From Candidatus Zhuqueibacterota bacterium (GTDB lineage: Bacteria; Zhuqueibacterota; Zhuqueibacteria; Thermofontimicrobiales; Thermofontimicrobiaceae), in assembly GCA_034506395.1 (NCBI GenBank), contig JAPDPQ010000001.1:4435-68434 (forward strand): a DNA stretch of 64,000 bases. Direction: 5' to 3'. Position 1 is the first letter of the stretch, and the number at the start of each line of letters is the position of its first letter. The translations under genes and the position numbers were made by a program. Positions 2,156-51,588 of the stretch are shown here, piece after piece. The notes beneath the pieces were generated by a model. That model ran no database searches, had not been told where the DNA came from, and worked only from the letters and a program-made list of their open reading frames with translations.

Positions 2156-2294
2156 CTGTTCTAATATGCGTCCCAGCAGCTACGGACCAATCATTTTTTC
2201 GAGTGAAACTTAGCTCTCGAGATTGAGCATCAACAAAATATGTCTTGTTTTTTTCATGAAAATTTCTATATTTCCGTTAACAAAAAACGGAAAT

Positions 2295-2870
2295 ATGGAT
2301 ATGGAATTGACAGAACAAGAATTGATCCGTCGTGCAAAGCAAGGAGATCGGGCAGCTCAGGCTAAAATTGTAAAAGACCATGAGAAAATGGTCTATAATT
2401 TGGGTCTAAAATTATTGGGCAACCCTGACCAAGCAGAGGGCGTTTTGCAAGAGACCTTCCTCAAGGTATTGCAAGCGCTTCCCAAATTCGAGGAAAAATC
2501 TCAGCTCTCGACTTGGATCTATCGCATCGCGACCAATCAGGCGCTCATGCGATTGCGTTCTCGCAAACGTCGTTTTATTTCAATTGAGGAAAATCCAGAA
2601 TTTGAGGATAAAGATTACACGACCTTCGCTCAATCGTTGGATGCAACCCCACTGGATGACGTGCTGAATCAGGAATTGCGAGAAAAGATGGATCGAGCGA
2701 TTGAGCAATTGCCAGATAATTATAAAACAGTGTTCGTGATGAAGGATATCGAAGGGATGGCATTGAAGGAAATTGCAGAAATTTTAGACCTGTCTTTGCC
2801 TGCAGTCAAATCCAATCTGCACCGCGCCAGAGTTACTCTTCGAAATAAATTGGCTGAAATGTGGAACTGA
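2295..2870 (+). CDS. RNA polymerase sigma-70 factor, ECF (sigma-24) subfamily
   Basis: Region 2 (AEGVLQETFLKVLQALPKF...STWIYRIATNQALMRLR) and region 4 (YKTVFVMKDIEGMALKEIAEILDLSLPAVKSNLHRAR) motifs are present. Confidence 0.85.
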   Translation: MDMELTEQELIRRAKQGDRAAQAKIVKDHEKMVYNLGLKLLGNPDQAEGVLQETFLKVLQALPKFEEKSQLSTWIYRIATNQALMRLRSRKRRFISIEENPEFEDKDYTTFAQSLDATPLDDVLNQELREKMDRAIEQLPDNYKTVFVMKDIEGMALKEIAEILDLSLPAVKSNLHRARVTLRNKLAEMWN

Positions 2871-3469: not shown

Positions 3470-4876
3470 ATGAGCACCCAGCCGGGAATTAAAATCCGAA
3501 AAATTGCTATCGGCGCCGACCATGCGGGATTTGAGCTCAAGGAGAAGCTCAAAAAATATCTTGCTGATCGAGGGCATCATCTTTTTGATTGTGGAACTTT
3601 CAGCACCGAATCCGTGGATTATCCGAAGATCGCCTTTCAGGTTGCACAATTGGTGAGCAGAGGCGAATATGAATTGGGAATCATGATCGACGGTGCGGGG
3701 ATTGGTTCGGCGATGGCAGCCAATAAGGTCCCCGGTATTCGAGCGGCTCTCTGTTACGATCTTTCGACCGCACGCAATAGTCGCGAGCACAACAACGCCA
3801 ATGTCCTCACTCTGGGGGGTGGGCTGATCGGTTTTGAATTGGCCAAACAGATCGTCGATACCTGGCTGGCATCAGAGTGCACAGTCGATCGACACCTGCG
3901 CCGAGTACAGATGATCCATGACATCGAACAAGGAAAATTCACTGTGAATCAGATAACGATGCCTCCAGGTCCCTCATCTGGGTTGGCAATTTCCGAGGAA
4001 GACGTTAAGAAAATCGTTTCGAGAGTCCAAACTTTATTACAGCAGCAGATGGGAACTGGTGCGATGTGGACATCCGCTAGTTGTCAAAATCCCACATGCA
4101 ATTCGTGCGGCCAATGTGCGAATAAGGCCCCTGATGCCGTTCGTCAATTTATTTCCATTGGTGCTGCGCGCATCTCTAATGCTCCAGGTGGCATCGGTGC
4201 CCCGCAGGACATCGCCAAATTTATTGACCACACGCTGCTCAAGCCAGAAGCTACGATTTCGGATATCGAACGGGTTTGTCAGGAGGCAGTGAAATATCAA
4301 TTTGCAGCGGTGTGTATTAATCCCTGCTATGTGAAATTGGCGCATGAATTGACACGTGGATCCAATGTAAAAGTTTGTAGCGTGGTTGGGTTTCCGCTCG
4401 GGGCAAGCATCACCGAGATTAAAGCCCTGGAGGCTCGGCGAGCGATTCGCGACGGGGCGAAGGAGATCGATATGGTAATCAACATCGGTGCACTCAAAAG
4501 CGACAATGATGAATTGGTGTTTCGGGACATCCGGACTGTGGTGGATGCTTGTGTGGATGGAAGCGCAATCTGCAAGGTTATCATTGAAGCAGCGCTCTTG
4601 ACCGATGAAGAGAAAGTGAGGGCGTGCGAGCTGGCAAAGCGGGCGCGAGCCCATTATGTGAAAACGTCGACGGGATTCGGCCCCGGCGGTGCGACTGCGC
4701 ATGACGTCGCGCTGATGCGACAGGTGGTGAGCGGCACACGAATGGGCGTGAAGGCTGCGGGCGGCATCCGATCGCTGGCAGACGCACAAAAGATGATCGA
4801 AGCGGGGGCCACTCGGATCGGCGCCAGCGCTGGCGTGAAAATCGTCCAAGAAGCAGCAAAGGTGGCAAATCCCTGA
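3470..4876 (+). CDS. Bifunctional fusion: ribose-5-phosphate isomerase B (RpiB/LacAB) N-terminal domain + deoxyribose-phosphate aldolase (DeoC/DERA) C-terminal domain, with a Cys-rich linker
   Basis: N-terminus [17 protein letters not shown]...[28 protein letters not shown] (RpiB). C-terminus [12 protein letters not shown]...[10 protein letters not shown]...VKTSTGFG...AGGIRS (DeoC, with the Schiff-base Lys region). The linker holds [20 protein letters not shown] and [12 protein letters not shown]. Confidence 0.85.
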
Positions 4877-5063: not shown

Positions 5064-5693
5064 GTGGTTGACCTACGCGCTTATGTCTTTTTGGACAATC
5101 TTCAGCCGCAATACGCCGCCTTTTTGGGCACGGTGGCACAAGGGTTCCTGCCAATCGCCCACATGGCGTCGCTTTATGTCGAGATCTCCCCAGGGATCGA
5201 AATCAATCGTATCACGGATATCGCTTTGAAATCGACTCGGGTAACGCCGGGGATGCAAATTGTGGAACGCCTTTATGGTTTGCTTGAGATCCATTCTGAG
5301 TCTCAGGCGGACGTTCGGCAGGCTGGTCAGGCGATTTTGGACGCGTTGGGTTTAAAGGAAGAAGATCGCTGGAAGCCGAAGATTTACTCCAGCCAGGTGA
5401 TCCGACGAATTGATGACCATCAGACGCAATTGATTAATCGCATGCGCCACGGCAACATGATCATTCCGGGCCAGACATTGTATGTGATGGAAGTTGCCCC
5501 GGCAGCTTATGCCGCACTGGCAGCGAACGAAGCGGAAAAGGCCGCCGAAATTAATATCCTAGAGGTTCGAGCTTTTGGCAGTTTTGGACGCGTTTATCTG
5601 GGAGGAGAGGAACGCGATATCGACGTGGGGTGGCGCGCGGCTGTTCATGCCATTGAAAGCGTCACTGGCAAAATGTTTGAAGGAGCGTCTTAG
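5064..5693 (+). CDS. BMC shell protein, BMC-T with tandem circularly permuted BMC domains (PduB/EutL-like)
   Basis: Two repeats each end in a G-x-x-x-DV-x-x-A motif ([20 protein letters not shown] and [21 protein letters not shown]). GTG start follows an AAGGAGAG SD. Sits in the shell-gene cluster. Confidence 0.65.
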
Positions 5694-6062: not shown

Positions 6063-6383
6063 ATGGCCGAAGCTTTAGGAATGATTGAATGTCGTAGTTT
6101 TCCAGCAATGGTGGAAGCTGCAGATGCCATGGTTAAGGCTGCCAAGGTTGAGTTGGTCAGTTACGAGAAAACTGGGGGAGGATACGTCACTGCGATCATC
6201 CGTGGGGATGTTGCTGCGGTAAAGGCCGCTTGCGAAGCTGGACAAGCTGGTGCCGCCAAAGTGGGTGAGGTCGTTGCCGTGCATATTATCGCTCGGCCGC
6301 ACAGCAATGTGGACCTGGTATTGCCATTGGGCAGAAAGGAACAGGTAGCCGCAGAGCTGAAGAAAACCAAGCGCGATGAATAA
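6063..6383 (+). CDS. BMC shell protein BMC-H (PduA/EutM/CcmK family hexamer)
   Basis: [77 protein letters not shown] is the canonical Pfam00936 sequence. Confidence 0.95.
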
Positions 6384-6612: not shown

Positions 6613-6912
6613 ATGGTATTAGCCAAAGTAATTGGGACCGTGGTCGCCACGCGAAAAGAAAAGAGCATGGAAGGGCTCAAATTCCTGCTTTTGCGACAGG
6701 TCGACCTCGATGGCAACGAGATTGGGGGTCATATCGTTGCTGCTGATGCTGTTGGTGCAGGTCTGGGCGAAATGGTGCTTTATGCCACTGGTAGCTCGGC
6801 TCGACAAACCGTAATGACTGATAAGCGGCCTTGCGATGCGGTCATTATGGCCATTGTGGATAACTGGGAAGTGAACGGACAGATCAAATACAAAAAAGGA
6901 CAACATGATTGA
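6613..6912 (+). CDS. BMC vertex protein BMC-P (EutN/PduN/CcmL family), copy 1
   Basis: [31 protein letters not shown]...[25 protein letters not shown] is a typical pentamer protein. 99 aa. Confidence 0.9.
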
Positions 6913-7027
6913 CCTGCTCCGCCGCCTAATATTTTCCATTAGCCGTGCAATGACAGATTGTTGAGATTTAAACTCCAATGAAACCGCAGGCTGATTTGGC
7001 ATTTAATGAAATAACAGGTAGCGCAAA

Positions 7028-7594
7028 TTGGATCGACCTTTTTTAATCGGCAAAAAGATCTATCTCCGACCAGTAGAGCCTGAGGATGCGGCATTTCTCG
7101 CTCGGGGGGAAAATCACCCAGCGGTGCGCGAGGCGTTATTTCTGGCATTCCCCGTGAGTATGGGAACTGAGCTGGAGAAGATCGAGCAATTCATCAAATC
7201 CAAAGAAGCAATTGTGCTGATCATTGTAGACCAGCAGACGAATCAACCAGTCGGCCAGACCGCATTCTTTCGCATCGATTTCGTCAGCCGAGCGGCCGTT
7301 TTTTATCTGGCAATCCTCGATCCGAGCCATTGGTCGAAGGGGTATGGCTCGGAGGCCACACAACTCATGGTTGATTACGCATTCGAGACGCTCAATCTCA
7401 ATCGCATCCAGCTTCATGTCTGCGCCGAAAATACCCCTGCCATTCGGATTTATGAGCGCGCTGGATTCAAAAAAGAGGGAGTTTTACGACAGGCTATGTT
7501 TCGCAACGGGGCTTATGTGGATTTCTGGGTGATGGGCATCTTGCGGAGCGATTGGTCGGTGCGATCTCAAAATAGCCAAGTCTTTTCGGCATAA
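7028..7594 (+). CDS. GNAT family N-acetyltransferase (RimJ/RimL-like), embedded in the BMC operon
   Basis: IYLRPVEPEDAAFLA...QPVGQTAFF...WSKGYGSEATQLMVDYAFETLNLNRIQLHVCAENTPAIRIYERAGFKKEG is the acetyl-CoA-binding motif A region. Apparent TTG start. Confidence 0.75.
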   Translation: MDRPFLIGKKIYLRPVEPEDAAFLARGENHPAVREALFLAFPVSMGTELEKIEQFIKSKEAIVLIIVDQQTNQPVGQTAFFRIDFVSRAAVFYLAILDPSHWSKGYGSEATQLMVDYAFETLNLNRIQLHVCAENTPAIRIYERAGFKKEGVLRQAMFRNGAYVDFWVMGILRSDWSVRSQNSQVFSA

Positions 7595-7741
7595 GCCAAT
7601 CAAATCCAGCCATAAATTCATCGACACAATAGGTATTTTTCGCCGGTGGTTGAATGATCTTAATAGTTGATTAGAGACTTTCGTTCACATACAACAATTA
7701 TTTGGTTTATCATGCGATCACTTTAACGCTGGAGCGAACCC

Positions 7742-9187
7742 TTGTCTTTCCTTGGTGAAAATCAGATCGAAACGATCGCCCAAAAAATTGTGGAGATCAT
7801 TATTGGCAAGAGCTCAGTGCCGGACGCGGGTATAAGGAGTAGCTCGGTCTTTCGTTCAGGCTGGTTGGGGATTTTCCCCACCATCGATGAAGCCGTGACC
7901 GCGACTTCGATCGCTCAGCGGCAATTGACCAGCATGACGCTCCGAAAGCGAGATGAGATCATCGCCAGTATCCGAGCCATGATGCTGGAACATGCGCGGG
8001 AGTTGGCCGAATTCGCCGTTGCAGAGACAGGGTTGGGCCGCGTCGAAGATAAGATTGCCAAAAATAAATTGGTGAGCGAGAAGACGCCTGGGACAGAAGA
8101 TCTCTATCCGATTGCCCGATCTGGAGACCACGGGCTAAGCTTGTTCGAGCCAGCGCCTTATGGCGTTATTGGCGCCATCACGCCAATTACCAACCCCACT
8201 TCTACGATCATCTGCAACACGATCGGAATGGTTGCAGCGGGCAACGGGGTGGTTTTCAACGTTCATCCTGGGGCAAAAAACACCTCAATCCAAAATATCC
8301 ATTTAATAAACCAGGCTATTATCCAAGCTGGTGGGCCCGTGAATTTGGTCAGTGGCATAACCGAGCCAACAATTGCAACGGCACAGCAATTGATGCGCCA
8401 TCCTGGGATACGAATTTTGGTCATCACAGGCGGAGGTGCTGTGGTCCGAGAAGCGATGAACAGTGGCAAGCGAGCCATTTGCGCTGGGCCCGGCAATCCA
8501 CCTGTGGTAGTTGATGAAACCGCTGATTTGGAGCGCGCTGGCGAGTTCATCGTGAAAGGCGCATCGTTCGACAATAACATCATCTGTGTGGATGAAAAGG
8601 AACTCATCGTGGTTGAGGCAGTGGCAGACCAATTGCTCAGGATCATGCAGAACAAAGGGGCGATCTTGCTAAAACCCCAGCTTCTCCCCCAGCTCGAGCA
8701 ATTATTGTTCGAGAAAACGAACGGGCCGGCCAAGCCAGGGATGATAAATAAAAGCTTGATCGGCAAAAATGCCAATTTGATCCTCTCGAAATTGGGGCTA
8801 TCGGTCGATGATCGGATTCGATTGGCCGTCATCGAGGTCGATCGCACCCATCCGCTGGTCTGGACCGAACAGATGATGCCAATTTTGCCGATGGTGCGGG
8901 TGGCGAATGCGGATGAGGCAATCGATTTGGCAAAACAGGTAGAAGGTGGAAATTATCATACTGCGGTTATGTATTCCCGAAATCTGGACAATCTCAGCCG
9001 GATGGCCCGGGAAATTAACACGACAATTTTTGTGAAAAACGGTCCCGCCTATGCTGGATTAGGATTTGGCGGCGAGGGATACACTTCTTTTTCTATCGCC
9101 AGCCCAACGGGAGAGGGCTTAACAGGTCCGCGCAGTTTCTCAAGAGAGCGGCGTTGCGTGTTGGTAGATCATTTTCGGATCGTTTAA
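7742..9187 (+). CDS. CoA-acylating aldehyde dehydrogenase (PduP/EutE family) with an N-terminal encapsulation-peptide-like helix
   Basis: Full-length similarity to EutE/PduP, with the catalytic Cys context NNIICVDEKELIV. N-terminal QIETIAQKIVEIIIG amphipathic helix, then a Ser/Gly-rich linker before the ALDH core. TTG start with a GGAGCG SD. Confidence 0.9.
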   Translation: MSFLGENQIETIAQKIVEIIIGKSSVPDAGIRSSSVFRSGWLGIFPTIDEAVTATSIAQRQLTSMTLRKRDEIIASIRAMMLEHARELAEFAVAETGLGRVEDKIAKNKLVSEKTPGTEDLYPIARSGDHGLSLFEPAPYGVIGAITPITNPTSTIICNTIGMVAAGNGVVFNVHPGAKNTSIQNIHLINQAIIQAGGPVNLVSGITEPTIATAQQLMRHPGIRILVITGGGAVVREAMNSGKRAICAGPGNPPVVVDETADLERAGEFIVKGASFDNNIICVDEKELIVVEAVADQLLRIMQNKGAILLKPQLLPQLEQLLFEKTNGPAKPGMINKSLIGKNANLILSKLGLSVDDRIRLAVIEVDRTHPLVWTEQMMPILPMVRVANADEAIDLAKQVEGGNYHTAVMYSRNLDNLSRMAREINTTIFVKNGPAYAGLGFGGEGYTSFSIASPTGEGLTGPRSFSRERRCVLVDHFRIV

Positions 9188-9188
9188 T

Positions 9189-9812
9189 ATGAAACTATAC
9201 CCTGCAATTGCGCTGATCGAGTTTAGTAGCATTGCCACCGGAGTAATTGCTGGCGATGCGATGATCAAAAGAGCGCCGATTTCCATGTTAAAGGCTGGCA
9301 CGGTCAGCCGAGGAAAATATCTGGTGATGATTGCTGGTAGCACAGCAGCGGTCGAGGAATCTTATCGGGCTGGTCTAAGCGTCGGCGAAGCTGCGGTCAT
9401 CGATAAGGTTTTTCTGCCTGATGTGCATCCGCAGGTGCTCGACGCTATCCTTGGAGCAAGAAAAAAAATCAGCTCCGAGGCACTCGGGCTGATCGAAACC
9501 GCATCTATTGCCGCGACGATCGCCGCCGCTGATGCTGGCATCAAAGGGGCGATGGTCGATATCATCGAAATTCGGCTGGGCGACGCATTGGGCGGCAAGG
9601 CATTTGTGATGATGAACGGAACAGTCCACGACGTCACCGCTGCAGTTACCATTGGGCTGAAAGCGATCTCCAATGAAGCGCTTTGGCGCAATCATATCAT
9701 CATCCCATCGTTGCATCACGAAATGGCCCGTCAGATCGACCGTTCGAGCCGATTTGCCCTGGTAGAATATCAAAAATTAGCTGGAGACGAGAGCGAACAT
9801 GTTACTGGGTAA
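9189..9812 (+). CDS. BMC shell protein BMC-T, tandem canonical BMC domains (PduT-like)
   Basis: Two BMC domains (AIALIEFSSIATGVIAGDAMIKRA... and EALGLIETASIAATIAAADAGIKGA...). ATG lies 1 nt after the AldDH stop. No Fe-S-ligand Cys seen in domain 1. Confidence 0.85.
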   Translation: MKLYPAIALIEFSSIATGVIAGDAMIKRAPISMLKAGTVSRGKYLVMIAGSTAAVEESYRAGLSVGEAAVIDKVFLPDVHPQVLDAILGARKKISSEALGLIETASIAATIAAADAGIKGAMVDIIEIRLGDALGGKAFVMMNGTVHDVTAAVTIGLKAISNEALWRNHIIIPSLHHEMARQIDRSSRFALVEYQKLAGDESEHVTG

Positions 9813-10089
9813 AGTGATCGGCACTGTTACGCCCTGCGTGGTTTACCCCGGACTCGAAGGCGTTCCGCTTCTGCTGGTTCAGCCGCTGAGTAAAAACTCC
9901 AAAGCGGTCGGCAAGCCCATTGTCGCCTGCGATGCCACCCGAATGGCTGGTCCAGGAGAACTGATCTATTACGAGGGCGGCCGCGAGGCAGCGCTGGCAT
10001 TAGATCCCTGGTTCGTCCCAGTGGATCACACCATCATTGGCATTGTGGATGGCGTCCATCTAATCGATGAAAGCTCTCAGTCCGAGTGA
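9799..10089 (+). CDS. BMC vertex protein BMC-P, copy 2
   Basis: MLLGKVIGTVTPCVVYPGLEGVPLLLVQPL...IVACDATRMAGPGELIYYEGG. Overlaps the BMC-T stop by 14 nt. Confidence 0.85.
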   Translation: MLLGKVIGTVTPCVVYPGLEGVPLLLVQPLSKNSKAVGKPIVACDATRMAGPGELIYYEGGREAALALDPWFVPVDHTIIGIVDGVHLIDESSQSE

Positions 10090-10319
10090 AATTCAACTCT
10101 TTCAACCTCGCAGACAGCAAGTTCCTGCTGCAAAATGTCAAAAAGAGGCTATATTTTCACGCCGGCGAAGGCAGGTATCTCAACATTCGGTTGACCTAAC
10201 GATCAGTTTAGAAGGAGGTTCCTGTGCGCAAGCCAGCGGACAGAAATGAGAGGGCTCAACCATAGCGCTTTTTGCAACAGAAACTCGCTAGCTAATTTGT
10301 TAGAATTGGAGAAAAAGTT

Positions 10320-10592
10320 GTGATTATCGGCAAAGTCGCTGGAGAAATCTACTCCACGATCAACCACAGTTTCTATGATCAAAAAAAACTGCTGATCGTG
10401 GACAAATTGGACCTAACTGGAACGCCCACAGGCGACTATTTGATCGCAGTAGATTCCGTCGATGCTGGGCTCGGTGAAACGGTATTGGTCATTGATGAAG
10501 GCAATTCGGCCCGACAGGTAGTAAGCGATCCCAATGCGCCAATCCGCTCAATCATTATCGGGATCATCGATGCCGTGCGCATTGAGAGGTGA
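10320..10592 (+). CDS. BMC vertex protein BMC-P, copy 3 (GTG start)
   Basis: IIGKVAGEIYSTINHSFYDQKKLLIVDKLD...LIAVDSVDAGLGETVLVIDEGNSAR. 90 aa. Confidence 0.8.
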   Translation: MIIGKVAGEIYSTINHSFYDQKKLLIVDKLDLTGTPTGDYLIAVDSVDAGLGETVLVIDEGNSARQVVSDPNAPIRSIIIGIIDAVRIER

Positions 10593-10840: not shown

Positions 10841-11527
10841 ATGGCGAATGAATGGCAATTGCGACGGGAGATCGTCGCGATTGGCAAAAAGGCTTACGAA
10901 CGCGGGCTGGTGACGGCCACAGATGGGAATATCAGCGTGCGAGTCATGGGAGATCGTTTTCTGATCACACCGAGCGGCAGTTGCCTCGGAGAATTGGCAC
11001 CCGAACAATTGGTTTATGTCGATTTTGAAGGCAAGACATTATCTGGCGGTAAGCCAACTGGAGAGCTGGCCATGCACCTGGCTGCTTATCGAGAGCGGCC
11101 AGACATCCATGCCGTCTTGCATGCACACCCACCAATTACCACGGGCTTTACCATCGCTGGCGAATCACTGGCGCAATGCGTCATCCCCGAGGTTGTGGTG
11201 ATCTTCGGGACCATCCCTACTACGGAATATGCCACTATTTCAACTGAAGAGGGTGCCAAAGTCATTCGGGAATTGATCCGCGACCATGATGCTTTGATAT
11301 TGGATCGGCATGGGACAATTACAGTGGGAAAAACCCTCATCGACGCATATCGCAAACTCGAGAAGGTCGAATATGCCGCCCAGGTCACCCTGGTTGCCAA
11401 ACAATTGGGCAAAGTGAAAACCTTATCGCGTGAACAAATTCAAAAATTGGAAGCCGTCAGGCAAAAATATGGCTATCAGGGCCGAAAATCGCTATGCGAG
11501 GCATGTGGCCTCTGCAATATTTCATGA
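10841..11527 (+). CDS. Class II aldolase/adducin-family protein (FucA/RhaD/AraD/MtnB-like) with a C-terminal extension
   Basis: ATDGNISVRVMGDRFLITPSG...KPTGELAMHLAAYRERPDIHAVLHAHPP...LDRHGTITVG includes the Zn-binding His triad. The C-terminus adds SREQIQKLEAVRQKY...CEACGLC. Confidence 0.85.
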   Translation: MANEWQLRREIVAIGKKAYERGLVTATDGNISVRVMGDRFLITPSGSCLGELAPEQLVYVDFEGKTLSGGKPTGELAMHLAAYRERPDIHAVLHAHPPITTGFTIAGESLAQCVIPEVVVIFGTIPTTEYATISTEEGAKVIRELIRDHDALILDRHGTITVGKTLIDAYRKLEKVEYAAQVTLVAKQLGKVKTLSREQIQKLEAVRQKYGYQGRKSLCEACGLCNIS

Positions 11528-11694: not shown

Positions 11695-12588
11695 ATGAAG
11701 GAGAACAAATTTTTGACTGCAAATCAGCAAGAACCGATCCAATCCACATACGACTGTATCCCCTGTGCTATCGGGAGCCTGATCACTCTATTTAAAAAAG
11801 GACTGGTTTCAGAAAGGGATCAGGAAATCGCCATGCGAGCATTATTGCGTTATCTCAGCACCATTGATTTCCATCAATCCCCTCCCCAAATCGGTCAACA
11901 GATGCAACGGATCATTCGACACGTGCTCAATAATCCTGATCCGTATTTAGAAATCAAACAGCAATTCAATCGCTTGCTTCTCGATCATTACGTTGAATTA
12001 AAAGCATGGGTGGACCAGGCGGCAGATCCATTTCAGATGGCATTGCGATTGTCCATCGCTGGAAACGTGATCGATTTCGGTCCGAATCAACGCTTTGATG
12101 TCCACCAAACATTGGAACGGGCAAAGACTATTGTCCTGGCGATCGATGATTCAGAGCCTTTGCGCCAGGCCATCTCGAAAGCAACGCTACTTCTCTATTT
12201 GGGAGATAATGCTGGCGAAATCGTGTTGGATCGTATTTTCCTGGAAACGATTAACCATCCCAATGTCTATTTTGCTGTTCGCAGTGCGCCCATCATCAAT
12301 GACGCATTGCTGGAAGACGCAATCATGGTAGGAATCGACAAAATTGCCCATGTCATCACCAATGGGGATGATGCGCCTGGGACAATCTTAGAGAACACCT
12401 CAGCCCAATTTAAGACAATTTTTGACCAAGCGGATCTGATCATTTCAAAAGGCCAGGGCAATTATGAGGGTCTTAGCTGCGTTGATAAAAATATCTTCTT
12501 TTTGCTAATGACCAAATGCGAGCATGTCGCTAATCATCTTGGAGTAAAAAAAGGTGATTTTGTGGTGAAACAAGGACAAGGTTGTTGA
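11695..12588 (+). CDS. DUF89 / ARMT1-like damage-control sugar-phosphate phosphatase family protein
   Basis: 297 aa with characteristic segments SIAGNVIDFG, LGDNAGEIVLD and KGQGNYEGL. Confidence 0.65.
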   Translation: MKENKFLTANQQEPIQSTYDCIPCAIGSLITLFKKGLVSERDQEIAMRALLRYLSTIDFHQSPPQIGQQMQRIIRHVLNNPDPYLEIKQQFNRLLLDHYVELKAWVDQAADPFQMALRLSIAGNVIDFGPNQRFDVHQTLERAKTIVLAIDDSEPLRQAISKATLLLYLGDNAGEIVLDRIFLETINHPNVYFAVRSAPIINDALLEDAIMVGIDKIAHVITNGDDAPGTILENTSAQFKTIFDQADLIISKGQGNYEGLSCVDKNIFFLLMTKCEHVANHLGVKKGDFVVKQGQGC

Positions 12589-36933: not shown

Positions 36934-38229
36934 TTAGTGAATGGAGCCCAATATCAATCTTGGGACCTGACATGGTGCTTCATCAATTTCAATTGCCGAT
37001 CGTAAAGCGTGTTCAATTTGCTCAGCATTCATCACTTTTGAGTGATAGATTTCAGCCAAAGGCTCACCGCGTTCCACGCGATCACCGACTTTATGGCACA
37101 AAACGATCCCCGCGGTGGGATCAATGGGATCTCCAATTTTTGCCCGACCAGCGCCGAGTTCCATGGACAACAAGCCGATCTTCAGCGCATTTATCTCGTG
37201 AACATAACCTGATTTGGTGCTGAGCACGGTTTCATGATATTGGCTGAAGGGATATCGAGCAGGATTTTCAACGACTGAAATATCACCTCCCTGGGCAGTT
37301 ACCATCTCAATAAATTTATTATAGGCAGCTCCATTGGCTAATAAAAATTGCAATTGATCAGAATGATGAATTGGCTTTCCCGCCAATCGCAGCATCTCTG
37401 CCGTGAGCGCCAAAGTAATTTCAACTAAGTCATTTGGGCCACCACCATGCAATGTATCAATTGCTTCTTTAACCTCCAGCCAATTCCCAACCGCATAACC
37501 TAAAGGCTGATCCATGGCCGTCATCATGGCCGTAGTGGGCAGGCCGAAGCTTTTTGCAATCGAGATGAATGTCTCGGCTAATTGGTTCGCTCGGTCAAAT
37601 GAGCTAAAAAATGCTCCACGACCAGTTTTAACATCCAACACCAGGGCCTTTGCACCTTCTGCGATCTTTTTGCTCAATATGCTGGCAACAACTAAAGGGA
37701 TCGATGGCACAGTTCCTGTGCGATCGCGTAACGCATAAATCTTTTTGTCCGCCGGGACAATCTCATCGGTTTGCCCAATCATGGCAAGGCCGATTTTTTC
37801 AACTTGTTGAACGAACTCTGTCAAGCTCAACTGGGTTCGAAAGCCGGGGATCGATTCTAATTTGTCCAATGTCCCACCAGAATGGCCCAATCCACGACCA
37901 GACATCATGGGAACTGCTACCCCTGCCGCGGCGGCCAATGGGGCCAAGACCAATGACACCTTATCACCGACCCCTCCAGTGCTGTGCTTATCGACAGGCA
38001 TCCGATCTAAATGGCTGAAGTCTACCGTCCGGCCCGATTGAACCATGAGCTTGGTCAATGCTTGAGTCTCTTCTATGCTCATGCCCTGAAAATAAATGGC
38101 CATCAATAAAGCGGCCATTTGGTAGTCTGGGACCAAACCAGCGACATAGCCATCGATTATTGATTTCAACTCTGCCTCTGAAAGGTGAGATCCGTCTCGC
38201 TTTTTCACAATCAATTGTTCAATATTCAT
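36934..38229 (-). CDS. deoA: Thymidine / pyrimidine-nucleoside phosphorylase
   Basis: IIVKKRDG..LS..E..SII..GYV...KHSTGGVGDKVSLVLAPLAAA...MMSGRGLGHSGGTLDKLESIPGF. Confidence 0.9.
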   Translation of the reverse strand: MNIEQLIVKKRDGSHLSEAELKSIIDGYVAGLVPDYQMAALLMAIYFQGMSIEETQALTKLMVQSGRTVDFSHLDRMPVDKHSTGGVGDKVSLVLAPLAAAAGVAVPMMSGRGLGHSGGTLDKLESIPGFRTQLSLTEFVQQVEKIGLAMIGQTDEIVPADKKIYALRDRTGTVPSIPLVVASILSKKIAEGAKALVLDVKTGRGAFFSSFDRANQLAETFISIAKSFGLPTTAMMTAMDQPLGYAVGNWLEVKEAIDTLHGGGPNDLVEITLALTAEMLRLAGKPIHHSDQLQFLLANGAAYNKFIEMVTAQGGDISVVENPARYPFSQYHETVLSTKSGYVHEINALKIGLLSMELGAGRAKIGDPIDPTAGIVLCHKVGDRVERGEPLAEIYHSKVMNAEQIEHALRSAIEIDEAPCQVPRLILGSIH

Positions 38230-38319
38230 CGTTCCTCTTCCTTTTTCCAAAAAACAAAGAAGCAATCAAACAACGATTGCTTCTTTAATTTTGTTTTCAT
38301 TCTATAGCTCTATTTCGTG

Positions 38320-39681
38320 TCAACTAAGAGCGCTCAATTGCTTAATCTCCTCAACAAATTGATAAGCCAGTGCATTGGCTTGGTCCATGGTTTTCGCCTC
38401 AGCGTAGATTCGGATAATTGGCTCTGTATTGGACGGTCGAATTTGCACCCAGCGATCGGGCCATAGGATCTTCAAACCGTCCGTCAGATCGAGACGCTGG
38501 TTATTGTATTTATTGGTCATCGTCTTCAATAACTCGCCAATATTCACATCGGCCAATTCAATGCGACTCTTAGCGATCACATATTGCGGCAAAGATCGTT
38601 GCAATTCGCCAATAGAGCCCCCAAATTCAGCCAATTGCTGCAAAGTTAAGGCAATTCCCACTGGTGCATCTCGGCCTAAATGAAGCTCCGGCAAGATAAC
38701 TCCTCCGTTTCCTTCCCCACCGATCACCGCCTTCACTTCCTTCATCTTTTTTGCGACATGAATTTCCCCAACTTTGGTTCGAAACACCTCAGCGCCATAT
38801 TTGGCAGCAATTTCGTCGATCGCCTGGGTGACCGAGACATTGACCGCCACTGGCCCGTGTCTTTTTTGAAGCACATAATTCACAGCTAACGCCAAAGTAT
38901 ACTCCTCGCCCAGGGGATTGCCGTGCTCATCGACAATGGCGAGCCGATCGACATCCGGATCCACTGCAAAGCCCAGATCGGCACCAGTGCGCTTCACTGT
39001 CTGGCATAATTCTTTGAGATTCTCTGGCAATGGTTCTGGTGGATGCGAAAATAACCCAGTTGGATCCTCATTGATAAATATCACATCGCATCCCAGGCGT
39101 TGCAATAATTGGGGTAAAATGGTCCCACCTGCTCCATTCACACAATCTACGACAACCCTAAATTTCCGGGCAGCTATCTTCTCTGGTGAAATCAAATCTA
39201 ATCGCAAAATGGCATCGATATGATGCCGAATAGCGGTGTTATTAAGTTCGATCTTTCCAATTTGATCCCAAGGGACAAAGCGAAATTCTGCTTCGTCGGC
39301 AAGCTGAATGACTTTCTTGCCTTGTATCTCATCGAGGAACATGCCAGAGGCATCGATCAATTTCAACGCGTTCCATTCGATTGGATTATGGCTGGCTGTG
39401 ATGGCAATGCCTCCACGCGCCTTAAAATGCTCCACCGCCAATTCTACCGTTGGCGTTGGGCAAATGCCGATATCAATTACATCGCATCCCATGGCCGTCA
39501 GGCCAGAGAGCACCGCATGCTTGACCATGGGTCCAGTGATTCGGGAGTCTCTTCCTACCACCACCTTTCCTCCACCCAAATAAGCCCCGAATGCCTGGGC
39601 GTATCGGAGGACCACCTCTGGGGTTAACCCATCTCCAACCACGCCTCTTATTCCCGAGATGCTAACCATTAATTTCGCCAC
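38320..39681 (-). CDS. Alpha-D-phosphohexomutase family protein (PGM/PMM/GlmM-like); candidate phosphopentomutase by context
   Basis: SGIRGVVG...GIAITASHNP (phosphoserine loop)...FAVDPDVDRLAIVDEHGN (metal loop)...GGEGNGG. Confidence 0.8.
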   Translation of the reverse strand: MAKLMVSISGIRGVVGDGLTPEVVLRYAQAFGAYLGGGKVVVGRDSRITGPMVKHAVLSGLTAMGCDVIDIGICPTPTVELAVEHFKARGGIAITASHNPIEWNALKLIDASGMFLDEIQGKKVIQLADEAEFRFVPWDQIGKIELNNTAIRHHIDAILRLDLISPEKIAARKFRVVVDCVNGAGGTILPQLLQRLGCDVIFINEDPTGLFSHPPEPLPENLKELCQTVKRTGADLGFAVDPDVDRLAIVDEHGNPLGEEYTLALAVNYVLQKRHGPVAVNVSVTQAIDEIAAKYGAEVFRTKVGEIHVAKKMKEVKAVIGGEGNGGVILPELHLGRDAPVGIALTLQQLAEFGGSIGELQRSLPQYVIAKSRIELADVNIGELLKTMTNKYNNQRLDLTDGLKILWPDRWVQIRPSNTEPIIRIYAEAKTMDQANALAYQFVEEIKQLSALS

Positions 39682-49224: not shown

Positions 49225-51588
49225 GTGACGCCGAGAGTTGAGAAATTAAGAAGACAAAGCCTGGAGACTCCGACATCGATTACAGCAGAGCGAGCGGTTT
49301 TAATCACCGAATTCTATCGATCGCATGATGCATTGACTATCTCAGCGCCGATGCGCCGGGCATTGGCGTTCAAATATCTGATGGAACATAAAGCCGTTTG
49401 CATCAACGATGGTGAGTTGATCGTTGGCGAGCGCGGACCGGCTCCTCGGTCAACCCCAACATTCCCAGAGATCTGCTGCCATACGATTGAGGAGCTTGAG
49501 ATCCTCAATTCGAGGGAAAAAGTGAGCTACGCGGTCTCTGAAGAAACCAAGCGGATTTATCGCGAGCAAATTATTCCCTATTGGAAGGGAAAGACTATTC
49601 GGGAAAAGATCTTTGAGGAGATGACCGATGAGTGGAAAGCGGCCTATCGCGCTGGGATTTTTACCGAGTTCATGGAGCAACGCGCTCCTGGTCATACAGC
49701 ATTAGATGACAAAATTTACTTGAAAGGCTTTTTGGGATTTAAGAAAGAGATCGAAGAGCAACTGAGTCGATTGGATTATCTAAACGATCCGGAAGCGTAC
49801 GAGAAGCAGGAACAGCTCAAAGCCATGGCCATTGCTGCGGATGCCATCATTCGCTATGCCGAACGACATGCCGAACTCGCCCAACAAATGGCCCGCAAAG
49901 AATCTGATCCAGTCAGGAAACGCGAACTTGAGCAAATTGCAGAAATCTGCGCCTATGTCCCAGCCAATCCGCCACGAACCTTCTGGGAGGCGCTGCAGGC
50001 GTACTGGTTCACCCATGTTGGGGTGATTTCGGAATTAAACACCTGGGACGCCATCTGCCCTGGCCGATTCGATCAGCATTTTTATCCGTTTTACAAAAAG
50101 GACATTGAGTCTGGTCTATTGTCTCGAGAGGCCGCTAAGGAGCTTCTGCAATGCTTCTGGATCAAATTCAACAATCAGCCCGCCCCTCCAAAGGTGGGCG
50201 TCACTGCTCAGGAGAGCGGGACTTATAACGATTTTGCGCTGATTTCGCTGGCCGGACAAACGCGCGATGGAAAAGACGGTGCCAACGAGCTCTCCTATTT
50301 ATGCCTCGATGTATTGGAGGAATTGCGGCTGGTGCAGCCCCACTGTTGCGTTCAATTGAGCCAGCAAAATCCCGATCGCCTGCTGAAGCGTGCGCTCGAG
50401 GTCAATCGCACTGGTCTGGGTCAACCCTCGATCTTCAATCATGACGCCGTGGTCCAGGAGCTTATTCGCCAGGGCAAATCTATCGAAGACGCGAGGACCG
50501 GCGGCACCAGTGGGTGTGTGGAGACCGGGGCATTGGGCAAGGAAAATTACAATCTCACCGGCTACTTTAATATGATGAAAGTGCTGGAAATCACGCTCCA
50601 CAATGGCGTCGATCCCCGTACTGGAGAAAAGATCGGGATCGAAACCGGGGATCCCACTCGATTTGAAAATTTTGAGCAATTATTCGAGGCTTATAAAAGA
50701 CAGCTTCGGCACTTCATCGACATTAAGATCCGAGGCAATAACATCATCGAAAAAATCTATGCGCAATATATGCCCACGCCGTTTCTTTCATTGTTGATTA
50801 GCGATTGCATTCAACGTGGTAAAGATTATCACAATGGCGGAGCGCGCTACAATACAAGCTACATCCAGGGCGTTGGTTTGGGCAGCATTACGGACGCCAT
50901 GAGCTCATTGAAATATCATGTTTACGATCATCGCAAGCTCACCATGGAGCAGATGCTCAGCGTCCTTAAAGATAATTATGAGGGCCATGAAAGGATTCGG
51001 CAGATGATGCGCTATCAGACACCCAAGTACGGCAATGACGATGATTATGCCGATGAGATTATGAAGCGGGTATTTGAAGCCTACTTTGAAGCGATCGATG
51101 GCAGGAAAAATATGAAAGGAGGAACTTATCGCATCAACTTGCTCCCGACGACGGTTCATGTCTACTTTGGCTCAGTGGTGGGAGCAACTCCCGATGGTCG
51201 AAAGGCAGGAGACGTACTCTCTGAAGGGGTGTCTCCAGTTCAGGGGGCGGATCGAAACGGTCCAACAGCAGTGATTAAATCGGTAGCCAAAATCGATCAT
51301 TTACGCACGGGCGGCACTTTGCTGAATCAGAAATTTTCACCTTCGCTACTGAGCAGCGATAACGGACTCGCTGGACTCGCCCATTTGGTACGATCTTATT
51401 TTAAAATGAACGGACATCACATCCAATTTAATGTGGTGACCGCTGCTACGCTCCGAGCGGCTCAGCAGCACCCAGAGAAGTATCGCGACCTGATCGTTCG
51501 GGTGGCAGGATATAGCGATTATTTCTGCAACTTGAATAAAGGCCTGCAGGATGAGATCATCGCCAGGACCGAACATCAAAGCTTTTAG
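49225..51588 (+). CDS. Glycyl radical enzyme, PFL2 / dehydratase-eliminase type (Cys-x-Glu active site)
   Basis: 787 aa. C-terminal glycyl radical motif RVAGYSDYF. Active-site loop GGTSGCVETG. GTG start with an AGGAGCG SD. Confidence 0.9.
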   Translation: MTPRVEKLRRQSLETPTSITAERAVLITEFYRSHDALTISAPMRRALAFKYLMEHKAVCINDGELIVGERGPAPRSTPTFPEICCHTIEELEILNSREKVSYAVSEETKRIYREQIIPYWKGKTIREKIFEEMTDEWKAAYRAGIFTEFMEQRAPGHTALDDKIYLKGFLGFKKEIEEQLSRLDYLNDPEAYEKQEQLKAMAIAADAIIRYAERHAELAQQMARKESDPVRKRELEQIAEICAYVPANPPRTFWEALQAYWFTHVGVISELNTWDAICPGRFDQHFYPFYKKDIESGLLSREAAKELLQCFWIKFNNQPAPPKVGVTAQESGTYNDFALISLAGQTRDGKDGANELSYLCLDVLEELRLVQPHCCVQLSQQNPDRLLKRALEVNRTGLGQPSIFNHDAVVQELIRQGKSIEDARTGGTSGCVETGALGKENYNLTGYFNMMKVLEITLHNGVDPRTGEKIGIETGDPTRFENFEQLFEAYKRQLRHFIDIKIRGNNIIEKIYAQYMPTPFLSLLISDCIQRGKDYHNGGARYNTSYIQGVGLGSITDAMSSLKYHVYDHRKLTMEQMLSVLKDNYEGHERIRQMMRYQTPKYGNDDDYADEIMKRVFEAYFEAIDGRKNMKGGTYRINLLPTTVHVYFGSVVGATPDGRKAGDVLSEGVSPVQGADRNGPTAVIKSVAKIDHLRTGGTLLNQKFSPSLLSSDNGLAGLAHLVRSYFKMNGHHIQFNVVTAATLRAAQQHPEKYRDLIVRVAGYSDYFCNLNKGLQDEIIARTEHQSF

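Follow-up and report, generated by a model that had tools for sequence, protein, structure and literature searches.

Three divergent BMC-P pentamer genes in an SPU3-type bacterial microcompartment locus of Candidatus Zhuqueibacterota

Sugar-phosphate-utilising (SPU) bacterial microcompartment (BMC) loci, several hundred of which have been catalogued, encode more than one type of the pentameric shell protein BMC-P. Here we describe such a locus in a 64,000-nucleotide stretch (the window) of contig JAPDPQ010000001.1 from a Candidatus Zhuqueibacterota bacterium (GCA_034506395.1), with three BMC-P genes that we call P1, P2 and P3. The type that it resembles, SPU3, has been described as combining an acylating aldehyde dehydrogenase (AldDh), a pfam02502–pfam01791 fusion with an internal encapsulation peptide (EP), the hexameric shell protein BMC-H, a CcmP-like BMC-Tdp, a BMC-Ts without PduS and a triplet of BMC-P proteins that belong to the green, the grey and the orange clade, in taxa that include the candidate division KSB1 (PMC8217296, supplement). 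The signature enzymes of SPU3 are DeoC (pfam01791) and RpiB (pfam02502), which are often fused with RpiB at the N terminus, and the grey and orange BMC-P are invariably found together, as direct neighbours (PMC8217296, Sutter et al. 2021, Nat Commun). No SPU locus has fewer than the three BMC-P of such a triplet, and why several paralogs are kept is not known (PMC11585597, Dwyer et al. 2024, Commun Biol). The imbalance of one BMC-H to three BMC-P had already been noted in 2014 for Haliangium ochraceum (HO) (PMC4207490).

An SPU3 locus with a BMC-P triplet

The locus in the window is an SPU3 locus, whose gene content and order match the published description (Table 1). It encodes an RpiB–DeoC fusion together with an AldDh, as well as BMC-H, a CcmP-like BMC-Tdp and a BMC-Ts, and it is collinear with catalogued loci. 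AldDh has an EP-like N-terminus, and the linker between the two domains of RpiB–DeoC (residues ~155–245) contains an EP-like helix, which matches the published internal EP of the SPU3 fusion. Scanned in all six frames, the complete window holds three BMC-P in total, besides a single BMC-H, a single BMC-Ts and a single BMC-Tdp, and no PduS-type domain was present among the 30 window open reading frames (ORFs) scanned with Pfam. The first-pass annotation of this stretch had pointed to three BMC-P genes that differ clearly in sequence, to a 230-bp gap and a GTG start in front of the third, and to two kinds of BMC-T beside a single BMC-H, and in all these respects it was correct. It had also presented three pentamers as unusual; that view is outdated, as the triplet has been published and occurs in all SPU loci as well as in nearly all related loci analysed here. 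The three-pentamer pattern is thus already known: it is the catalogued BMC-P triplet of SPU3 loci.

One catalogued SPU3 locus, that of bacterium BMS3Abin05 (GCA_002898015.1, BMS3Abin05_0208x-02092), is collinear with the window, the encoded proteins being 56–87% identical. Common to both are RpiB–DeoC, Tdp, BMC-H, a 99-aa BMC-P, AldDh, a PduT-like Ts, two adjacent BMC-P and a class II aldolase, and both are devoid of PduS and phosphotransacylase (PTAC) in the locus. The BMS3Abin05 Tdp, labelled ccmPlike in the catalogue, is 87% identical to the one in the window, and the BMS3Abin05 protein P0105 is a 77%-identical homolog of P2. The window differs in that P1 and AldDh are separated by a GNAT gene and in the 230-bp spacer and GTG start of P3, whereas the corresponding genes of BMS3Abin05 overlap by 4 bp. 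Another catalogued SPU3 locus, that of KSB1 4572_119 (L005 in our numbering of related loci), has the same gene order as the window.

The shell of HO, which consists of one BMC-H, three BMC-T and three BMC-P (structure 5V74), resembles the window in its single BMC-H, several BMC-T and three BMC-P, and the genes for its other two BMC-P are paired and accompanied by an aldolase gene, as are those for P2 and P3. Unlike the window, the type I HO system has this pair and the aldolase in a satellite locus; it also has two BMC-Tdp, lacks DeoC and RpiB in the main locus and has no assigned function. The α-carboxysome proteins CsoS4A and CsoS4B are, like P2 and P3, two adjacent BMC-P paralogs that always co-occur, but they belong to the purple clade, form a pair rather than a triplet and serve an anabolic BMC; the CsoS4 models matched P1 and P3 weakly (23–43 bits against cut-offs of 89–120) and gave no match to P2. 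The single-pentamer metabolosomes and the β-carboxysome (EutN, PduN, GrpN and CcmL) share the PF03319 fold family and the docking motifs with the window BMC-P, yet their loci have one BMC-P each instead of three, and P2 and P3, which fall into deep clades of their own, are 28–50% identical to these single-pentamer reference proteins.

With the window, the catalogued SPU loci gain a further example, which is probably KSB1-related. The puzzle stated by two groups (PMC8217296, PMC11585597) is that three ancient BMC-P lineages are kept by strong selection, while 12 pentamers per shell suffice, and for this puzzle the window is no better suited than any other SPU, HO, PVM or ACI locus. The explanation that we favour for the locus as a whole, and consider very probable, is an SPU3-type BMC-P triplet in which P1 caps the vertices while P2 and P3 most likely serve as additional shell caps.

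Three intact genes, their phylogeny and the P2–P3 spacer

P1, P2 and P3 are each intact and under strong purifying selection. Every one of the three translations aligns with positions 1–83 of the 83-position PF03319 (EutN_CcmL) profile, at scores (Table 1) above its gathering score of 25 bits, and pairwise identities are 32.6% for P1/P2, 34.8% for P1/P3 and 31.8% for P2/P3. Relative to the nearest related locus (L001), dN/dS was 0.025 for P1, 0.053 for P2 and 0.064 for P3; dS is saturated, so that these values are approximate, yet they lie far below 1. Mean divergence across 61 loci was 0.33 for P1, 0.33 for P2 and 0.40 for P3, similar to the 0.35 of the core enzyme AldDh. That any of the three might be a pseudogene, a possibility raised in the first-pass annotation, or a spurious ORF is ruled out by the Pfam scores, the end-to-end matches and the dN/dS values.

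The three proteins differ in their distance from known structures. The best match of P1 in the PDB was 5v74, the pentamer of the HO shell (E = 1.2e-32, 66% identity), that of P3 was EutN 2hd3, a distant one (E = 1.6e-13), and P2 had only distant PDB relatives (best E = 8e-10). At the sequence level, P2 had 3672 homologs, and among the matches listed identity was 73–91%, with several phyla represented. In a neighbour-joining tree of the three window proteins, their orthologs, sampled at every fourth locus, and five pentamers of solved structure, the paralogs fell into three separate clades, with bootstraps of 100 for the P2 clade, 98 for the P3 clade and 96 for the clade of P1 with the HO BMC-P. 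P1 groups with the HO BMC-P, CcmL and GrpN, P3 is weakly nearest to EutN (bootstrap 47), and P2, the most divergent of the three, sits on a long isolated branch. Identity was 60–67% within the orthogroups and 30–36% between them. With three deep clades and orthologs in many phyla, a recent tandem duplication is ruled out, and P1, P2 and P3 are old genes that have been maintained separately.

These relationships also suggest how the window genes correspond to the published triplet. The ortholog of P1 in BMS3Abin05 (BMS3Abin05_02090, 78% identical) carries the label viridian2, i.e. the green clade, in the catalogue, and P1 is accordingly a canonical pentamer of the green clade, with a predicted place at the vertices. 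P2 and P3 lie side by side, fall into two deep clades of their own and have as orthologs the neighbouring pair of the catalogued BMS3Abin05 locus; by position, adjacency and exclusion, they probably represent the grey/orange pair.

A search of genome contigs with AldDh yielded 434 relatives, and 80 loci were returned; the closest of these, by identity to the AldDh query, came from unclassified metagenome-assembled genomes (MAGs; 76–78%) and from candidate division KSB1 (72–77%). When the count was restricted to the 60 loci with enough flanking sequence, orthologs of P1, P2 and P3 were all present in 58, so that the triplet is a hallmark of the family and no peculiarity of the window. The window order Tdp-H-P1-AldDh-Ts-P2-P3 was seen in 56 of these 58, after correction of three long-ORF artefacts, and the remaining two deviate only in the placement of Tdp/H or of Ts/AldDh. 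The source MAGs are labelled KSB1, Acidobacteriota, Planctomycetota, Verrucomicrobiota, Kiritimatiellia, Chloroflexota, Fibrobacteraceae and others. The triplet is missing from only two of the 60, L057 and L072 from Anaerolineae MAGs; these loci end after AldDh and are devoid of Ts-P2-P3, which suggests a split locus, and the catalogue mentions a split locus for some SPU3 members (PMC8217296). An apparent order of P3 before P2 in L015, L018 and L039 was traced to the length of the stop-to-stop frames in these high-GC genomes; in fact P2 precedes P3.

The spacer between P2 and P3 is a local feature. A 4-bp overlap of P2 with P3 is shared by about 50 of 70 relatives, and spacers of 230–350 bp were found only in the window and in L001, L003, L006 and L038. 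The GTG start of P3 is preceded by GGAGAAAAAGTT and stands behind GGAG. This start is credible because L001 has a TTG at the same position, likewise behind GGAG, and because the Pfam match begins at residue 1. Alignment of the spacer with those of L001, L003 and L006 revealed no conservation except for the ribosome-binding site and the start codon, Rfam gave no match in it at the gathering score or at E≤1, and it folded as RNA no better than shuffled sequence (z = -0.22). A promoter and terminator scan placed no site in the spacer, with overall counts no higher than expected from shuffling. On these grounds a functional element in the 230-bp gap was rejected. The spacer is best seen as lineage-specific, its sole plausible consequence being that translation of P3 is uncoupled from that of P2. 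Two minor features were seen in these regions. A 60-aa ORF (10067–10249) falls in the unconserved stretch of the window spacer, and the spacer of L006 (10331–10700 of that locus) has an internal direct duplication, CAATTGACAATTGTGAATTGATAATT...GGAGAAATAATGATCTTGGGTCGAGTTTG occurring twice, which resembles a duplicated P3 start region.

Docking motifs and the possible roles of P1, P2 and P3

In each of the three orthogroups, conservation is at least 90% for both the AGxGE loop and the I(V/I)D motif. They read GAGLGE and IVD in P1, MAGPGE and IVD in P2, and DAGLGE and IID in P3. The I(V/I)D motif is said, in work of Sutter from 2017, to play a role in the docking of BMC-P onto BMC-H. The GAGxGE-type loop forms a salt bridge and hydrogen bonds with the (A/P)RPH and KAA motifs of BMC-H (PMC13370225). 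The retention of these motifs suggests docking of P2 and P3 into the shell, most likely as inserted caps, and not a free cytosolic state; all three pentamers may thus dock into the BMC-H lattice while differing in their other surfaces. In the loops between the conserved motifs, the P2 orthogroup has the signature PC...QPL...RMAGPGE...EGGREAALALDPWFVPVDH and an invariant stretch, LALDPWFVPVDH; the P3 orthogroup is marked by sTInHpfY...DEGngARQ...aP.R and by a change of Asp to Arg at alignment column 75 (D75->R). Such signature motifs for each orthogroup, the docking loop kept in all three and the prevalence of the 4-bp P2/P3 overlap are by-products that may be useful to work on the puzzle of the triplet.

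In the model of PMC11585597, BMCs of this type follow a deoxyribose-5-phosphate route through DeoC and AldDh. In the window, DeoC would split deoxyribose-5-phosphate into glyceraldehyde-3-phosphate and acetaldehyde, and AldDh would convert the acetaldehyde to acetyl-CoA inside the shell. P1, given its 66% identity to the 5v74 pentamer, is predicted to be the main vertex cap and would close the icosahedral vertices as its close HO homolog does, whereas P2 and P3 would probably form additional shell-docking pentameric caps, beside P1 or in its place.

Several observations count against this explanation. The synthetic, structurally solved HO shell needs only one BMC-P, and pentamer formation and shell entry of P2 and P3 are predictions from the motifs. 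P2 has a one-residue insertion before AGPGE (RMAGPGE) and GGREAA in place of the conserved GSSARQ, changes that could alter its oligomerisation or docking. Its AlphaFold2 (AF2) monomer model was poor (pLDDT 60.5, with the C-terminal third below 50), the underlying alignment of 40 homologs with 73–91% identity being too shallow; all 34 of the 34 top PDB matches that Foldseek returned for this low-confidence model were BMC-P (GrpN, CcmL, HO, EutN, CsoS4B), though weak ones (E at least 1.4e-3). Finally, grey and orange are putative labels for P2 and P3, derived from position, adjacency and exclusion.

The most viable of the other explanations is that the vertices are specialised or heterogeneous. 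P1, P2 and P3 would each assemble into homopentamers, placed at different vertices or, as conditions change, at the same ones, and the vertices would differ in pore chemistry, local curvature or preference for BMC-H, BMC-Ts or BMC-Tdp as neighbours. It is consistent with the docking motifs kept in all three proteins (for the role of the loop, see PMC13370225), with the invariant signature that each orthogroup has in the loops between those motifs, and with the presence in one locus of three hexagonal tile types beside three pentamer types. On the other hand, an icosahedron needs merely 12 pentamers, and no structure of a grey- or orange-clade pentamer exists. We regard this reading as a tentative one, with odds somewhat below even. 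Vertex heterogeneity and specialised pores, which the first-pass annotation had also proposed, amount to the same speculation as in the literature, and the data from the window are neutral on both sides.

P2 and P3 could also work as one unit, either as a hetero-oligomeric cap, comparable to the CcmK3/CcmK4 heterohexamers, or as a stacked or paired factor that nucleates or closes the shell. The two are always adjacent and always co-occur (PMC8217296), the 4-bp overlap of their genes in most related loci implies coupled translation, and in HO the pair is set apart from the main locus together with an aldolase. Against this, the two genes are uncoupled in the window and its nearest relatives by an unconserved spacer of 230–350 bp, and the mirror-tree partial correlation of P2 with P3 (0.26) is not above that of the unrelated operon pairs Tdp–H (0.41) and AldDh–Ts (0.49). 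No case of BMC-P hetero-oligomerisation has been described (PMC10681173). A single functional unit of this kind thus seems unlikely. An equally doubtful candidate, on which our data are neutral, is that P2 and P3 are an obligate two-component module with a task of its own, for instance as a pentamer of mixed or asymmetric make-up or in the control of shell closure or size, rather than spare caps; the 230-bp spacer and the GTG or TTG start would then let the cell set the P2:P3 ratio independently.

The notion of redundant copies, i.e. recent duplicates or decaying genes without separate function, would agree with the sufficiency of one BMC-P for the HO model shell but is refuted by the low identity between paralogs as against that between orthologs, which hold the same locus position in many phyla, by the dN/dS of each gene and by a divergence similar to that of AldDh.

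Gene list and neighbouring genes

Table 1. Features of the SPU3 locus and of its surroundings in the window
Feature	Position	Strand	Evidence and remarks
ECF sigma factor	2223–2870	+	Upstream of the BMC operon
RpiB–DeoC fusion (ribose-5-P isomerase/deoxyribose-phosphate aldolase)	3470–4876	+	PF02502 183.5 bits; PF01791 68.9 bits; TIGR00126 deoC 280.9 bits
BMC-Tdp shell protein, CcmP-like	5064–5693	+	NCBIfam CcmP NF053796 343.7 bits (cut-off 340)
BMC-H (hexamer)	6063–6383	+	PF00936 100.4 bits; KAAK and ARPH interface motifs in translation
P1, BMC-P, 99 aa, ATG start	6613–6912	+	PF03319 101.3 bits
GNAT acetyltransferase	7028–7594	+	PF13302 76.9 bits; between P1 and AldDh
AldDh, acylating aldehyde dehydrogenase, metabolosome core enzyme	7742–9187	+	PF00171; NF011927 658.6 bits
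BMC-Ts, tandem BMC domains, PduT-like	9189–9812	+	PF00936 twice, 105.5 bits; TIGR02526 86.6 bits, below its cut-off
P2, BMC-P, 96 aa, ATG start	9799–10089	+	PF03319 65.7 bits
P2–P3 spacer, 230 bp	10090–10319	no strand	Unconserved; no RNA element detected
P3, BMC-P, 90 aa, GTG start	10320–10592	+	PF03319 84.4 bits
Class II aldolase	10841–11527	+	PF00596 169.7 bits; after the P2–P3 pair
ARMT1-like (DUF89) damage-control phosphatase	11695–12588	+	Directly downstream of the aldolase
Pyrimidine-nucleoside phosphorylase	36934–38265	-	Adjacent to the mutase; ~26 kb from the BMC locus
PGM/PMM-family mutase	38320–39681	-	Adjacent to the phosphorylase
PFL-like glycyl radical enzyme	49225–51588	+	PF02901 805 bits; Gly_radical

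Within the operon, the 3' end of the BMC-Ts gene and the start of P2 share 14 bp. At its C-terminus the class II aldolase has an amphipathic, EP-like helix (EQIQKLEAVRQKY) and, after it, the cysteine motif SLCExCGxC. All relatives that bear the aldolase keep this helix; the CxxCxxC tail is confined to the KSB1-like group (L001, L003, L005). The aldolase occupies the same position in L001, L003, L005, L014, L016, L038, L041, L066, L068 and L081. The linker of RpiB–DeoC also bears a Cys motif, and of 52 orthologs of the fusion only 5 have a comparable Cx(2-5)CxxCxxC.

The GNAT gene, of the Acetyltransf_3, RimJ/SpeG-like kind, stands in the operon of shell proteins and enzymes but outside the conserved SPU3 core, as among the 80 related loci it was seen only in L001 and L002 besides the window. 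It is curious that an enzyme that uses acetyl-CoA adjoins the acetyl-CoA-producing AldDh in a locus type without phosphotransacylase; no encapsulation peptide was evident in the GNAT protein. Downstream of the locus, the ARMT1-like phosphatase has no counterpart in the 80 related loci, and Lgt is encoded there as well. The glycyl radical enzyme, which is pyruvate formate-lyase (PFL)-like, has no shell genes beside it and so does not mark a GRM-type BMC locus.

Two further differences from BMS3Abin05 concern genes outside the operon. Upstream of the locus, the window encodes an extracytoplasmic function (ECF) sigma factor, whereas BMS3Abin05 has a SorC/DeoR-type sugar-binding regulator there, which suggests a different regulatory input in the window lineage. 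The nucleoside phosphorylase and the mutase, which are remote from the BMC locus in the window, lie directly upstream of the SPU3 locus in BMS3Abin05 (L081, 1–2240), and this pair fits a route that supplies deoxyribose-5-phosphate from nucleosides.

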